DNA of 64,000 bases from Gammaproteobacteria bacterium (lineage in GTDB: Bacteria; Pseudomonadota; Gammaproteobacteria; Eutrophobiales; Eutrophobiaceae): positions 3,632-67,631 of the forward strand of contig JANQJZ010000013.1 of NCBI GenBank assembly GCA_028281365.1, written 5' to 3'. The first letter of the stretch is position 1, and each line of letters starts with the position of its first letter. The position numbers and the translations under genes were made by a program. The notes under the pieces are model-generated. The model searched no databases and was not told where the DNA came from. It was given only the letters and a program-made list of their open reading frames with translations. Shown here piece by piece: positions 48,295 to 51,551 of this stretch.

Positions 48295-49086
48295 ATGGTA
48301 AATAATTTCACCTGTTTGAAACCACCAATTAAATATCCTGGTGGCAAACGATTTTTAATACCAACTGTTAAAGAATATTGGCTTAAATGCAATTCTAAAC
48401 GTTTAGTAGAACCATTTTCAGGGGGGCTCTCGATCGTATTAGGTATTGCACCTAAAAACGCATTGCTAAACGATAGTAACCCTCATGTAATTAATTTCTA
48501 TAATTGGATAAAAAAAGGATTGGTAATAAAAATGCCCATGAAAAATGAAAAGTCCTTTTATTACCACAAGCGTGAAGAATTCAACCAATTAATATTAGAA
48601 AATAAGATGACTACAAAAAAAGCTGCCAGCTTATTCTATTATCTTAATAGAACAGGATTTAATGGTCTTGTTAGATTTAATAAATCTGGATTTTACAACG
48701 TTCCATTTGGGAGGCATTCTAATATTAACTATAAAACCAATTTTAAAGAATATATTCCTATAATGAAAAAATGGAATTTAAAAAGTGGTGATTTTAGTTC
48801 TATAAAAATTAGAGAAAACGACTTTCTTTATATTGATCCACCCTATGATGTAGAATTCAGGTCATATTCAATGGATGAATTCCAATGGGAAGACCAAGTA
48901 AGACTTGTAGAATGGCTTTCTAATAAAAAATGTCCAATTATTATTTCAAATCAAGCTACTGAACGAATAATTAAGTTATATAAAAAATATAACTTTAAAT
49001 TAAAGTACATACTTGCACCTAGGATGATAAGTTGTAATGGAGATAGGACACCTGCCAAAGAGGTAATTGCTACAAAAAATTTATGA
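48295..49086 (+). CDS. DNA adenine methyltransferase, Dam/DpnM-like (D12 class, alpha group)
   Basis: 263 aa. N-terminal YPGGKR (motif X/I region). DPPY motif IV (LYIDPPYDVEF). AT-rich island. Confidence 0.8.
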   Translation: MVNNFTCLKPPIKYPGGKRFLIPTVKEYWLKCNSKRLVEPFSGGLSIVLGIAPKNALLNDSNPHVINFYNWIKKGLVIKMPMKNEKSFYYHKREEFNQLILENKMTTKKAASLFYYLNRTGFNGLVRFNKSGFYNVPFGRHSNINYKTNFKEYIPIMKKWNLKSGDFSSIKIRENDFLYIDPPYDVEFRSYSMDEFQWEDQVRLVEWLSNKKCPIIISNQATERIIKLYKKYNFKLKYILAPRMISCNGDRTPAKEVIATKNL

Positions 49087-49108
49087 TCTTGAATCGACGA
49101 TTTTTACT

Positions 49109-49828
49109 ATGCTAATTAACAAACCTAAAAAATCAAGACATGCAAAATTAATCACTTCTTCTTATGAACTTTATCAATATGAAGCCATAGATTTTTTAAA
49201 GCTTGTTCCCACAGAATCAATTGATTTAGTCATTACCGACCCTCCATACGAATCACTTGAAAAGCATAGAGCAGTTGGAACTACAACAAGGCTTAAAAAT
49301 AGTAAAGCCTCTAGTAATACCTGGTTCAAGATATTTCCTAATTATTTATTTCCAGAATTGTTACACGAAATTTATAGAATTCTGAAAAAAAATTCACATT
49401 TTTATCTTTTTTGCGACCAAGAGACTGCTTTTATAATAAAGCCTGAAGCTGAAGATGCTGGATTCAAATTCTGGAAACCACTTATATGGGATAAGAAAAA
49501 AATAGGTATGGGATATCACTACAGAGCAAGATATGAATTTATTTTATTTTTTGAAAAGGGAAAAAGGAAATTAAATAATTTAGCCATACCAGATATTCTT
49601 GAATATCCAAGAATTCATAGAGGCTACCCAACTGAAAAGCCAGCTGAACTTTCAGAGACATTAATTCAACAAAGTAGCTCAAAAAATGAATTAATCTGTG
49701 ATCCGTTTATGGGATCTTGCTCTGTTGGTATTGCTACTATTAGGCAAAATCGTAGATTTTTAGGCGCCGATATTTCAAGAGAAGCCTTTAATATATCTAA
49801 AAAAAGAATACAATCATTAAAGTCTTGA
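49109..49828 (+). CDS. DNA methyltransferase, N-4/N-6 type (beta group: DPPY before FxGxG; DpnA/MboIC-like)
   Basis: Start taken at MLINKPKK (the track ORF begins at 49067, overlapping the upstream MTase). DPPY (LVITDPPYESL) precedes the AdoMet motif (CDPFMGSCSVG). Confidence 0.8.
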   Translation: MLINKPKKSRHAKLITSSYELYQYEAIDFLKLVPTESIDLVITDPPYESLEKHRAVGTTTRLKNSKASSNTWFKIFPNYLFPELLHEIYRILKKNSHFYLFCDQETAFIIKPEAEDAGFKFWKPLIWDKKKIGMGYHYRARYEFILFFEKGKRKLNNLAIPDILEYPRIHRGYPTEKPAELSETLIQQSSSKNELICDPFMGSCSVGIATIRQNRRFLGADISREAFNISKKRIQSLKS

Positions 49829-49851
49829 AATAACAATCATAGACACGACAC

Positions 49852-50256
49852 ATGGAAGATACTGAAATAGCATACGAATGGCCCGATATTTATCCGGAGG
49901 GAGTTCCTCCAGAGGACTCAACCCCTGCCAAAGGAAAAGCTTTTCGCTTAGTTGACGAAATTCCTCCAAGCGAACAAGATTTTCTAATGTCCATAGAAAG
50001 AATACCTGACAGAAATACTATATCTGAAAAAGAAGCTGCTAAAATGTATGGTGTTTCTTTATTTACTAAATCTGAAGCAGCAATAGACAAAAAGAATAGG
50101 TACCCCTCTTTAAAACTTAAGAAAATTGCCTTTGGAACACTTATACCTAGTTTAGGAAAGATATCTAAGCCTAACAGAAACCACCATATTACGTTATGGA
50201 AATGTTGTGATTCGAAACCGCATTTATATATAAATAAAGAACTTAAACCGAAATGA
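49852..50256 (+). CDS. Hypothetical protein (134 aa), no recognisable family. In the MTase island
   Basis: ORF with AT-rich codon usage matching the island. 4-bp overlap with the downstream gene. Confidence 0.5.
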   Translation: MEDTEIAYEWPDIYPEGVPPEDSTPAKGKAFRLVDEIPPSEQDFLMSIERIPDRNTISEKEAAKMYGVSLFTKSEAAIDKKNRYPSLKLKKIAFGTLIPSLGKISKPNRNHHITLWKCCDSKPHLYINKELKPK

Positions 50257-51551
50257 GCATTCTTCCATCAAATACCTATTTAGGAAAGTTAAAGATTACC
50301 GAAGTATATGATTATTACGAAGGTCCTAAATTTTTCTGTGTTAAAAACCAATTTAGGCAAATAATGGTTGTTTATTGGGTAGACCATAAAAAAGATAACA
50401 ATTCCTACGGATGGCTTTATTTACCTATTACTGATGAAAAACTGAATGAACTAAGAAGAGGTAAAATCTCAGTTCGAAATGCATATGAAGATCCTGAACA
50501 AGGGTTATACCTCGTTTACACTCAACCTAAAACTTCAAAAAATGAAGTAGAATATTATGAAAAAGATCAAATTAATAAAAAGTTTTTACCTCCTAAAAAC
50601 CTTTTTATTACACCTGAAGATATTGATGTAGTTGATGATAGAGAAGCAAACTGGGTTTATGAACTGTACATTAAAAAATCTAATTCAGATGAGCTTCTTA
50701 CTACAAGAACAGTAACAAGTGTTCTTAACGCATTTCGCGAAATTATAGAACAATTAATGAAAACTGATACAAGAGAGCAACCAAAGATATATCCACTTAG
50801 TGCTGTACCTGGTTCATTTAACTTAAAAATTGTATCCAGTAATAATAAAAAAGCAATGGATGCACTAGAAAAATTTCAAGAAATTATCAAATCTAACAAT
50901 AACAATATCCTTGATATATTGAAGAAATTAAAACTAGACCCTTTTATATTAAAAATATTATATGAGGTAATTTACACTAATAATATCGATATTGTAATTA
51001 CTCCTAAAACATTTGACCATGTTACAGGAGAAATTAAAGTTCAGAAAAGTCAGGCAAAAAGCAAACTTTCAAAACTTGAAAAGACAACTTTTAATATTAT
51101 TGAATCAATTAAAGTACCTCAGGCAAATGATATTGATAAAGTTATTAAAGTCGTAGAATTAAAAAAGAGAGGTAAGAAAATTACATATGACTTAATAGAT
51201 GGATTAAACTCAAACCGACAGGTAAAGTACTATACCGACGCTGCATTTTCTTTAGGGTTACTCACTAGAGATGGTTATTTAACCTCTGCGGGGAGATTCC
51301 TCATTTCTAAAAAATCCATCAAAAGTAGATATCAAGTTTTAGCCGACAGATTTGAGACCAGTGATTTTGGTTGGGCATGGATGAATTGGTCAAATGTAAC
51401 CTCAATTAATGAATTAGATCCAGATACAGCATCTGAATTTATTAAAACATCAGTACCTGATCTAGGTTCAAATACAGCAAATAGAAGATCCACAACTCTC
51501 ATTAAATGGCTTAAAGTATTGGCCCCATATCATAGAAATTATCACAAATAA
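50253..51551 (+). CDS. Hypothetical protein (432 aa). Candidate restriction endonuclease or effector of the adjacent MTases
   Basis: Large ORF co-oriented with and coupled to the upstream genes. Acidic segment PEDIDVVDD...YELYIKK resembles a weak PD-(D/E)xK-like motif. No confident family. Confidence 0.5.
   Translation: MSILPSNTYLGKLKITEVYDYYEGPKFFCVKNQFRQIMVVYWVDHKKDNNSYGWLYLPITDEKLNELRRGKISVRNAYEDPEQGLYLVYTQPKTSKNEVEYYEKDQINKKFLPPKNLFITPEDIDVVDDREANWVYELYIKKSNSDELLTTRTVTSVLNAFREIIEQLMKTDTREQPKIYPLSAVPGSFNLKIVSSNNKKAMDALEKFQEIIKSNNNNILDILKKLKLDPFILKILYEVIYTNNIDIVITPKTFDHVTGEIKVQKSQAKSKLSKLEKTTFNIIESIKVPQANDIDKVIKVVELKKRGKKITYDLIDGLNSNRQVKYYTDAAFSLGLLTRDGYLTSAGRFLISKKSIKSRYQVLADRFETSDFGWAWMNWSNVTSINELDPDTASEFIKTSVPDLGSNTANRRSTTLIKWLKVLAPYHRNYHK

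Follow-up and report, generated by a model that had tools for sequence, protein, structure and literature searches.

A four-gene cassette lies between bolA and dapE

The window analyzed here, a 64,000-nucleotide stretch of gammaproteobacterial DNA, carries four ORFs that lie tightly packed on the + strand between bolA and dapE. The features of the locus are as follows.

bolA, 48013-48288, + strand: Pfam BolA (1.5e-29); left boundary of the variable locus
M1, 48295-49086, + strand: 263-aa Dam-family (alpha-class, D12) N6-adenine DNA methyltransferase, DpnM-like
M2, 49109-49828, + strand: small beta-class N6A/N4C DNA methyltransferase, 239 aa from its ATG
A (orf134), 49852-50256, + strand: PD-T4-10_A-like small protein, putative partner of the N-terminal domain of B
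B (orf432), 50253-51551, + strand: DUF6575 plus DUF7226
B N-terminal beta-rich domain (aa 1-142), 50253-50678, + strand: first half of DUF6575, the part common to PD-T4-10_B
B middle alpha/beta domain(s) (aa ~150-280), 50700-51092, + strand
B C-terminal DUF7226 tandem winged-helix domain (aa ~289-426), 51117-51530, + strand: putative DNA-reading module
dapE, 51607-52737, + strand: Pfam Peptidase_M20 and M20_dimer; right boundary of the variable locus

Pfam searches identified IspA/yciB, YCII and BolA upstream of the cassette and DapE, an M20 peptidase, downstream. The cassette is AT-rich (GC ~0.30 versus ~0.41), with GC values of 0.26-0.35 over positions 48250-51500 compared to 0.40-0.47 in the flanks. 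Both the ORFs and the GC profile therefore agree with an earlier sequence-only reading of this DNA, which had described four co-oriented AT-rich genes at this site. That reading had also called the genes translationally coupled. This holds for orf134 and orf432, which are joined by an ATGA overlap, the only strict overlap in the cassette, but the other pairs are merely tightly packed: 6 nt separate the bolA stop from the M1 start, 22 nt lie between M1 and M2, and 23 nt between M2 and orf134. The gap from orf432 to dapE is 55 nt. M2 was the sole ORF of the four that needed a start correction; the mechanical ORF begins at a TTG (49067), and we set the start at the ATG to match the 239-aa orthologues in two related genomes (L026 and L027).

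The first two genes encode DNA methyltransferases

M1 matched Pfam PF02086 (MethyltransfD12) at 8.7e-40 and, above the cut-off, TIGR00571 (dam) at 3.4e-52. Its closest solved relative is DpnM/M.DpnIIA (2dpm; 2e-31). Alignment to EcoDam revealed that M1 retains KxxGGK and the LNRxGxNGLxRxN...NVPFGR hairpin. Conservation of this DNA-contact segment, together with the allelism with a canonical dam gene described below, argues that M1 is most probably GATC-specific. GATC avoidance was considered as an indicator and dropped, since the observed/expected ratio in the window was 0.91, which shows no avoidance and is uninformative. M1 also matched the PADLOC model PD-Lambda-5_B at 1e-18, a score that reflects general D12 methyltransferase similarity only.

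M2 matched Pfam PF01555 (N6_N4_Mtase) at 1.4e-33, and its DPPY motif precedes an FxGxG-like motif, the order characteristic of the beta class. The best solved match was distant (1e-13): 5hek, a small adenine methyltransferase of the beta class deposited under the name 'DpnA'. Thus, the sequence-only reading was correct in calling one Dam/DpnM-like and one beta-class methyltransferase. Conservation of M1 (77%) and M2 (86%) equals or exceeds that of the housekeeping neighbors (74% for DapE), indicating from sequence that both enzymes are functional.

orf134 and orf432 resemble the PD-T4-10 pair

PD-T4-10 is a validated anti-phage system consisting of two proteins without known function (PMC9519451). 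It was described in E. coli ECOR65 (RCO36089.1/RCO36088.1) as a toxin-antitoxin-like two-gene system with no predicted function (Vassallo et al. 2022, PMC9519451). In E. coli, PD-T4-10B is toxic, A neutralizes it, and the pair provides abortive-infection defence against T-even phages; DUF6575 is listed in the same work as a newly defence-associated domain (PMC9519451).

B matched Pfam DUF6575 (1.5e-37) and DUF7226 (1.5e-6). Residues 21-124, within an N-terminal domain that AlphaFold modeled with a pLDDT of ~90, matched positions 25-125 of the 353-position PADLOC model PD-T4-10_B at 9.3e-9. Relatives of B likewise matched this model at the N-terminus only. The remaining ~300 residues of B, comprising the middle domain and DUF7226, fall outside the match, and homology to PD-T4-10_B is thus not full-length. 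A matched PD-T4-10_A (PDLC04023) at 9e-5, with aa 18-121 aligned to positions 25-135 of 148. This match is weak but consistent: relatives of A in four other loci (L018, L019, L007 and L021) matched the model at 7e-7 to 1e-5 over positions 23-143. The A protein of one locus (L001) gave no match to PD-T4-10_A in PADLOC. Here and in relatives, the A and B models were matched in PD-T4-10 order and with the overlapping-ORF layout, and small-then-large, overlapping, co-oriented ORFs were present in ~60 related loci.

Collectively, these sequence matches identify orf134-orf432 as a distant relative of PD-T4-10. The sequence-only reading had held that the two proteins match no family; instead, orf432 is composed of DUF6575 and DUF7226, and the comparison with PADLOC models that the same reading had proposed placed orf134 with PD-T4-10_A and the orf432 N-terminus with PD-T4-10_B. 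Because the PD-T4-10_B match is limited to ~100 N-terminal residues, the toxicity seen in E. coli may reside in a C-terminal part that is absent from orf432. A nucleotide-level search of E. coli genomes with the Pantoea homologue returned no match, and a search for E. coli PD-T4-10 with an N-domain profile returned short fragments only.

The invariant residues of A are P19, R32, P39, F44, S69, H112 and W116. A had no Pfam or PDB match; Pfam scans at permissive settings across 38 members yielded nothing recurrent, and neither did a profile search of the PDB. The R...S...H pattern is only vaguely reminiscent of an ADP-ribosyltransferase-type motif, and we do not propose one.

B ends in a putative DNA-binding domain that accompanies Dam methyltransferases

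Structure comparison revealed that the C-terminal domain of B has a fold resembling the tandem winged-helix DNA binders FokI, N.BspD6I and BrxA; its winged helix is most similar to those of MarR-type regulators. DUF7226 was also present in other settings. It is fused to a D12 (Dam) methyltransferase in one locus (L086) and forms small standalone proteins encoded directly after Dam genes in two others (L025 and L082). In a fourth (L083), it constitutes the C-terminus of a protein that matched the PADLOC REase_II model (2.1e-54) and is encoded directly after a Dam methyltransferase 52% identical to M1. Over DUF7226, orf432 and this protein share 30% identity (152 aa; BLASTP E 9e-11) and an identical PQANDIDKV motif. 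The polar core of the domain is invariant in all contexts. DUF7226 thus accompanies Dam methyltransferases independently of A and DUF6575, and we infer that it reads DNA and its methylation state.

As the sequence-only reading had noted, the cassette lacks the endonuclease of ~280-300 aa expected from its DpnII/MboI/LlaDCHI-like layout, and it has no other recognizable one either. Neither orf134 nor orf432 matched a DpnII/MboI-family endonuclease in Pfam, NCBIfam or PADLOC, and positions 48295-51551 hold no other ORF of at least 50 aa with such a match. Family and structure searches found no catalytic or nuclease fold in orf432. The combination that defines FokI-like Type IIS enzymes, multi-winged-helix recognition plus a separate PD-(D/E)xK cleavage domain, was not found in orf432.

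The A-B pair is recurrently linked to methyltransferases

Across ~90 related loci, the A-B pair forms a constant core. It is joined in an operon either to a small membrane protein or to a methyltransferase from one of three unrelated families (M2-like, Dam-like or MmeI-type). Immediately upstream of B, an A-like ORF was present for 34 of 38 full-length genes and for 22 of 25 that encode only the N-domain, but it precedes only 1 of 10 genes for C-domain-only proteins. After dereplication, 25 full-length-B loci had sequence context on both sides. Of these, 13 carry a methyltransferase no farther than 1.5 kb away, 10 carry the transmembrane protein alone, and 2 lack both. In 12 of 17 N-domain-only loci, an MmeI-type R-M enzyme is encoded directly upstream, in most cases overlapping by 4 nt; in the MmeI-linked loci, the B N-terminal domain is fused to a DEAD/ResIII helicase. 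In ~15 unrelated loci, the methyltransferase directly upstream of A-B is 64-77% identical to M2.

The frequency of this linkage (13/25 and 12/17 loci) and its recurrence with three unrelated methyltransferase families indicate that it is not due to chance. It is not obligatory either, since about 40% of full-length-B loci lack an adjacent methyltransferase and PD-T4-10 in E. coli has only two genes. At full-length-B loci without a linked enzyme, the host Dam of Dam-positive gammaproteobacteria could supply the mark. The M2-A-B triad was also present in unrelated settings, next to transposases and on mobile elements, suggesting that a foreign origin of the cassette is likely. A phage origin was discarded, as a phage genome collection yielded no match and viral contigs only three.

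The cassette is allelic to a canonical dam gene

The sequence-only reading had interpreted the cassette as an insertion that splits a bolA-dapE adjacency and had implied recent acquisition. Neither view survived comparison with related genomes. The same four genes, equally AT-rich, are found at this site in L026 and L027 as well, and their divergence across the three genomes is about equal to that of the housekeeping flanks. This synteny and co-divergence, together with the lack of mobility marks at the locus, rule out a recent insertion; the cassette flanks contain no repeats, integrase, adjacent tRNA or terminators. bolA was never found directly beside dapE in relatives' loci: the site holds either the cassette or a solitary EcoDam-type gene. 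The genome L097, with flanks 88-89% identical in nucleotide sequence, has the arrangement bolA-dam-dapE; its cassette site is taken by a solitary, canonical EcoDam-type gene that matches E. coli Dam at 1e-82. Nucleotide homology between L026 and L097 stops at the 3' end of bolA and begins again 4 nt ahead of the dapE start codon. The presence of ScpAB had suggested a host outside the Dam clade; we dropped this idea after this canonical dam was found at the locus in a close relative.

Discussion

We judge the chances about even that the cassette is a methylation-gated R-M-like defence module with a PD-T4-10-type pair as its effector. This reading draws on the family assignments, the anatomy of the cassette, the recurrent operonic linkage, the sharing of DUF7226 and the allelic locus. 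Among the options raised by the sequence-only reading, it corresponds to a methylation-coupled defence effector of unknown type, the one favored by the evidence. In this model, M1 (putatively acting on GATC) and M2 (on adenine or cytosine-N4) would together mark the host chromosome. B would read DNA through its DUF7226 tandem winged-helix domain and, by analogy with the E. coli PD-T4-10 experiments, A would hold the N-terminal DUF6575 domain of B in check. Unmodified foreign DNA or a loss of methylation would then release the A-B switch. The output, as we infer it, would be arrest of the invader or of the cell itself, through abortive infection caused by PD-T4-10-type toxicity or through an unrecognized DNA-level activity. 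In this lineage, the cassette would have replaced the resident dam on the chromosome and presumably also taken over its GATC methylation, which we propose would make it hard to lose.

The two halves might instead be functionally independent, with M1, alone or with M2, providing orphan housekeeping GATC methylation in place of dam and A-B acting as a self-contained PD-T4-10-type toxin-antitoxin/abortive-infection pair triggered by a phage protein or process and not by methylation, the two being neighbors through defence clustering. Such independence would fit the ability of E. coli PD-T4-10 to work as two genes without a dedicated methyltransferase, the full-length-B loci with only the transmembrane protein (10/25) or nothing nearby (2/25), and the solitary dam of close relatives, which M1 could simply have replaced. 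We nevertheless consider it unlikely. Clustering alone is hard to reconcile with linkage that recurs with three unrelated methyltransferase families through tight or overlapping junctions, with movement of M2-A-B as a unit into unrelated genomic contexts, and with the separate occurrence of DUF7226 fused or adjacent to Dam and in a methyltransferase-linked REase-model protein.

We see a rather small chance that the cassette is a true Type II or IIS-like R-M system in which orf432, with or without orf134, is a site-specific endonuclease that cuts unmethylated sites directly, as R.DpnII does, and without abortive infection. The DpnII-like layout with the effector in the dpnB position, the DUF7226 domain held in common with the PADLOC REase_II-model protein, and the likeness of the recognition-type fold to FokI and N.BspD6I all point this way, and the invariant R, S and H of A could form an active site. 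The catalytic center would then lie in a type of fold that has yet to be recognized as a nuclease. Finally, DUF7226 could act in transcriptional regulation or bind methyltransferases, much as R-M controller proteins or the regulatory HTH domains of some methyltransferases do; orf134-orf432 would then govern methyltransferase expression or activity rather than serve as a defence effector. The MarR-like winged helix and the small DUF7226 proteins that follow or are fused to Dam are consistent with this idea, which we regard as highly improbable: a polar core that stays invariant in very different operons points to a single common ligand and not diverse operators, the A-B core is part of a defence family with experimental validation, and some A-B loci have a membrane protein but no methyltransferase.

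Returning to the methylation-gated module, we tentatively offer a broader proposal that we hold to be possible rather than probable. A and the DUF6575 N-domain may represent a broad, undescribed class of methylation-gated defence, in which a PD-T4-10-type switch stands in for the nuclease and is combined with interchangeable DNA-handling domains (a DUF7226 reader or a DEAD/ResIII helicase) and methyltransferases (Dam-type, M2 beta-class or MmeI-type), with DUF7226 as a transferable module that reads Dam-type (GATC) methylation state. If true, PD-T4-10 would gain a concrete mechanism, self/non-self discrimination by methylation, and such a module would be seen taking over a housekeeping dam locus. 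Three independent lines of evidence connect the PD-T4-10 family with DNA methylation: the operonic linkage to methyltransferases from three families, the winged-helix domain common to Dam-linked restriction-type proteins and Dam fusions, and the allelic replacement of a canonical dam. An opaque toxin-antitoxin pair thereby acquires a testable hypothesis, that of an R-M-like system whose effector is not a recognizable nuclease, and DUF7226 a candidate function, the reading of methylation state or of a target site. The survey also reveals the small membrane protein and the MmeI-plus-helicase arrangement as alternative partners of A-B. The locus itself provides a second natural example, after pneumococcal DpnI/DpnII, of alternative methylation-related cassettes at one fixed site.

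Comparison with known systems

The S. pneumoniae DpnII cassette, reportedly described by Lacks and colleagues (Lacks et al. 1986), is said to have the order dpnM-dpnA-dpnB and to alternate with DpnI at a single locus. Like it, the present cassette has a Dam-family methyltransferase, then a small beta-class methyltransferase, then an effector, and alternative sets of genes are found at one fixed chromosomal site with the same genes on either side. The cassette differs from DpnII in having a two-protein A-B module without a recognizable nuclease fold in place of the DpnII/MboI endonuclease, and M2 is only distantly related to the solved enzymes named 'DpnA' (1e-13). Unlike the DpnI/DpnII locus, the alternative allele is a solitary dam and not a methyl-dependent enzyme such as DpnI.

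The PADLOC REase_II model PDLC03513 (DUF6996-DUF6997-DUF7226) describes a predicted Type II restriction enzyme found beside Dam-family methyltransferases, as in L083; our literature search found no experimental characterization of this family. orf432 resembles it in its C-terminal DUF7226 and in the kinship of M1 with the L083 partner methyltransferase. By contrast, orf432 carries DUF6575 instead of the presumed catalytic DUF6996-DUF6997, is accompanied by the small partner A, and had no reported PDLC03513 match in PADLOC. The likeness to PD-lambda-5, a compacted prophage 'RM+Abi' system (Vassallo et al. 2022), is conceptual: both combine a D12-type methyltransferase with a non-classical effector, but the effector proteins are unrelated and PD-lambda-5 has no A/B pair. 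PD-T4-10, compared here through its PADLOC models, shares the small ORF overlapping a larger downstream ORF, an A protein matched over nearly its whole model length in relatives, and a DUF6575-bearing B matched over ~100 N-terminal residues. The present pair differs in that its 432-aa B adds a middle domain and DUF7226 beyond the 353-aa PD-T4-10_B model and in that, unlike the two-gene PD-T4-10 system, it is operonically joined to two DNA methyltransferases.

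The bolA-dapE interval carries two methyltransferases and an overlapping gene pair

Four co-oriented ORFs on the + strand separate bolA from dapE.

Features of the bolA-dapE interval
48013-48288: bolA, left flank of the cassette
48295-49086, +: M1, D12/Dam-family methyltransferase
49109-49828, +: M2, ATG start taken (the mechanical ORF begins at TTG 49067)
49852-50256, +: orf134 (A)
50253-51551, +: orf432 (B)
51607-52737: dapE, right flank of the cassette

The gaps bolA/M1, M1/M2 and M2/orf134 are 6, 22 and 23 nt, orf134 and orf432 overlap by 4 nt (ATGA), and 55 nt separate orf432 from dapE. 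GC content is 0.26-0.35 across the cassette versus 0.40-0.47 in the flanks. M1 belongs to the D12/Dam family (PF02086, 8.7e-40; TIGR00571, 3.4e-52, above cut-off), with DpnM as its nearest solved relative (2dpm, 2e-31), and M2 is a beta-class N6/N4 methyltransferase (PF01555, 1.4e-33) closest among solved structures to 5hek, a small adenine methyltransferase entered under the name 'DpnA' (1e-13). Because ORF layout, GC drop, methyltransferase families and nearest structures agree, the sequence-only reading was correct in describing an AT-rich cassette of four genes, two of them methyltransferases; what it made of that observation is supported in part. The sole Rfam match in the window is a tRNA gene far from the cassette (40730-40811, -).

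In a HMMER alignment with EcoDam, M1 keeps the N-terminal K-x-x-G-G-K and the LNRtGfNGLvRfN...NVPFGR segment, which we take to carry the GATC contacts K9, N120, L122, R124 and P134 of the EcoDam-DNA structure. This conservation, together with allelism with canonical dam, points to GATC as the most probable target of M1. GATC is not avoided in the window (1-64000; observed/expected 0.91). Of the tetranucleotide palindromes there, CCGG occurs far above expectation (observed/expected 1.51, z 8.8) and CTAG falls below it (0.52).

orf134 and orf432 form a PD-T4-10-family pair

The 134-aa and 432-aa proteins had been thought to match no family, but both have one. orf432 comprises Pfam DUF6575 (aa 1-213, 1.5e-37) and DUF7226 (aa 320-421, 1.5e-6). 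Among PADLOC models, orf134 matches PD-T4-10_A (9e-5) and orf432 matches PD-T4-10_B (9.3e-9) over its N-terminal ~100 residues only. In four of five other loci the A-like protein matches PD-T4-10_A nearly full length (1e-5 to 7e-7), and B-like proteins of distant relatives match PD-T4-10_B in the N-terminal ~100 positions only. An AlphaFold2 model of orf432 built with 36 homologues was confident (pLDDT 89.7) and divides in three: an N-terminal domain rich in beta structure (aa 14-142), an alpha/beta middle (aa 150-280) and a C-terminal domain of helices (aa 290-426).

Like orf134/orf432, PD-T4-10 consists of two overlapping ORFs, and this E. coli system has been validated by experiment: its toxic B is neutralised by A, an A deletion was not obtainable, and together the two proteins protect against T-even phages through abortive infection (PMC9519451). 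Both proteins were without predicted function when described, with DUF6575 among the domains newly tied to defence (PMC9519451), and the function of PD-T4-10 was still termed unknown in a 2024 review.

DUF7226 accompanies Dam methyltransferases in its own right

At L083, one of the compared loci, a 434-aa protein encoded directly 3' of a Dam-family gene matches PDLC03513, a PADLOC model for Type II REases, over its full length (2.1e-54) and has the Pfam architecture DUF6996-DUF6997-DUF7226. Aligned over 152 residues, this DUF7226 and the one in orf432 show 30% identity (E 9e-11) and share the motif PQANDIDKV unchanged; the methyltransferase paired with the 434-aa protein has 52% identity with M1. 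DUF7226 also makes up the C-terminal part of a fusion with a Dam-family methyltransferase (L086:5179-6468, 429 aa) and forms standalone proteins of 168-191 aa directly after Dam (L025:7917-8492, a Thorarchaeota MAG, and L082:958-1464). The domain is thus tied to Dam methyltransferases independently of the A-B pair. When ten DUF7226 domains covering all contexts (orf432, L083, Dam-fused, standalone) are aligned, PQAN, R, Y, A, T, RR and W are invariant, which points to one conserved ligand surface. A search of the literature and solved structures for DUF6996, DUF6997 and DUF7226 found no paper or structure.

A-B pairs recur beside methyltransferases

An exhaustive profile search returned 3379 cluster representatives at E <= 0.001, ~110 of them full-length. 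Many were 500-560-aa proteins with other N-termini, having only positions ~130-425 in common, and many were 140-190 aa, the C-terminal domain alone. We compared 25 genome, 59 metagenome and 3 viral loci, plus loci from exact protein look-up, scoring their ORFs with local HMMs, one per recurrent partner.

Architectures of the compared loci
Dam-M2-A-B: window, L026, L027, L032
M2-A-B: about 15 loci
A-B-M2, M2 on the reverse strand: 3 loci
A-B-Dam: 4 loci
Four-TM membrane protein (175-215 aa, opposite strand) adjoining A-B, no methyltransferase: about 14 loci
MmeI-family R-M fusion, A, B' (DUF6575 N-domain + DEAD/ResIII helicase, ~810-830 aa), mostly 4-nt overlaps: about 20 loci
Dam then DUF7226-only protein: L025, L082

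Among 25 dereplicated full-length-B loci with at least 1.2 kb of context on each side, a methyltransferase lay within 1.5 kb in 13, the TM protein only in 10 and neither in 2; operonic linkage of A-B to methyltransferases is recurrent. N-domain-only loci held an MmeI enzyme in 12 of 17 cases. A was present in 34 of 38 full-length, 22 of 25 N-only and 1 of 10 C-only loci, and so tracks the N-terminal domain of B, not the C-terminal one. M2 is 64-77% identical to the window copy across loci (L001-L003, L015, L016, L019, L029-L041, L091, L093; Gammaproteobacteria, Bacteriovoracaceae, Myxococcota), with A and B down to 26-59%; either M2 is unusually constrained or its gene spread more recently.

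The operon of MmeI fusion, orf134-like protein and DUF6575-helicase (L021:4823-10424; also L022, L024, L055-L057, L059, L060, L063, L064, L072-L075) has Acidobacteria MAGs among its carriers and GC native to the host; we know of no description of this arrangement. The TM protein has about four hydrophobic helices, is always encoded on the opposite strand beside A-B (L005:6820-7347, L013:6811-7458, L018:9324-9845 and L094:6307-6861, all -) in Alteromonadales, Vibrio, Pectobacterium and a Pantoea plasmid, matches no Pfam or PHROG family and is absent from the window. At L028:426-2876, a pair of small ORFs (142 and 113 aa) that overlap each other and lack family matches precedes a 563-aa protein with only the middle and DUF7226 regions in common with orf432; this may be a further version of the small-partner arrangement.

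The cassette is long resident and allelic to dam

Two relatives, L026 (GCA_025450675.1) and L027 (a Logan assembly), carry the same four genes at the same site.

Amino-acid identity to the window in L026 and L027
DapE: 74-75%
IspA: 69-75%
YCII: 76-83%
BolA: 58-68%
M1: 76-77%
M2: 85-86%
orf432: 64-66%
orf134: 52-53%

In most genes the L026 and L027 copies resemble each other a little more than they resemble the window copy. The cassette has a GC content of 0.29-0.36 in each of the three genomes, and bolA and M1 overlap in both relatives. The cassette has therefore co-diverged vertically with its flanks, which argues against the recent arrival implied by the sequence-only reading. No flanking repeats, internal terminators, promoter excess or nearby mobile-element genes were found around it.

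In the six listed of 16 contigs with a DapE of L026's 90% cluster, bolA does not directly adjoin dapE: a single gene lies between them, encoding a 271-aa D12 methyltransferase of host-like GC (0.40). This enzyme is 34-35% identical to the M1 proteins and is of canonical EcoDam type (1e-82 to E. coli Dam versus 4e-22 for M1). Between L026 and the dam-bearing relative L097, flanks are 88-89% identical in nucleotides, and homology ends at the end of bolA and restarts 4 nt before the dapE start. The enclosed segment is 3327 bp long in L026, where it encodes M1-M2-A-B, and 828 bp long in L097, where it encodes dam. The locus is therefore a fixed site that in every case contains a Dam-family methyltransferase, either by itself or leading the cassette.

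Elsewhere, distant M2-A-B triads lie beside DDE transposase and HicB/AbiE genes (L091, L092) or in an unrelated context (L093), and a TM variant is flanked by integrases on a mobilizable plasmid of Pantoea. The module nearly always has a higher AT content than its host, with a typical difference of 0.04-0.15; the exception is the compositionally native MmeI-linked Acidobacterial form. The module is thus probably mobile in origin, yet long resident in this host lineage.

Nearby, the UPF0114 protein (52744-53247) is 95% identical to that of L027 versus ~75% for its neighbours and may mark a patch of recent recombination. A second AT-rich dip (55250-56000, GC ~0.30) lies just past the isocitrate lyase (ICL) gene; in L026, L027 and L097 a LysR-type regulator gene separates ICL from clpS. 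This gene is absent from L103, a contig with the window's exact DapE, where ICL leads directly to ClpS.

A possible methylation-gated system

The cassette combines two apparently functional methyltransferases, a PD-T4-10-family A-B pair and, in B, a tandem winged-helix DUF7226 common to orf432 and Dam-linked restriction-type proteins. We give an even chance to a methylation-gated reading, in which M1 and M2 would mark self DNA, DUF7226 would read the corresponding site or its methylation state, A would restrain B via its N-terminal domain as in PD-T4-10, and unmodified DNA or loss of methylation would free a toxic or restrictive activity. The output could be PD-T4-10-type toxicity, a TM-protein route in other lineages or a nuclease of an unrecognised fold. 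The A-B loci lacking a linked methyltransferase come from Alteromonadales, Vibrionales and Enterobacterales, groups known to carry chromosomal Dam, which would fit methylation gating.

The methyltransferases and A-B might instead be independent neighbours, which we consider unlikely. That the cassette encodes a true endonuclease of new fold is a somewhat fainter prospect, and a regulatory role for DUF7226 is highly improbable.

Dam-type and beta-class methyltransferases and the PD-T4-10/DUF6575 family are known kinds. What is new is that this last family is systematically coupled to methyltransferases, that DUF7226 is linked to Dam-associated restriction-type proteins and that an allelic cassette replaces dam. 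In pneumococcus, alternative DpnI/DpnII cassettes reportedly occupy one locus; the host locus likewise has alternatives at one site, here the cassette and a lone dam.
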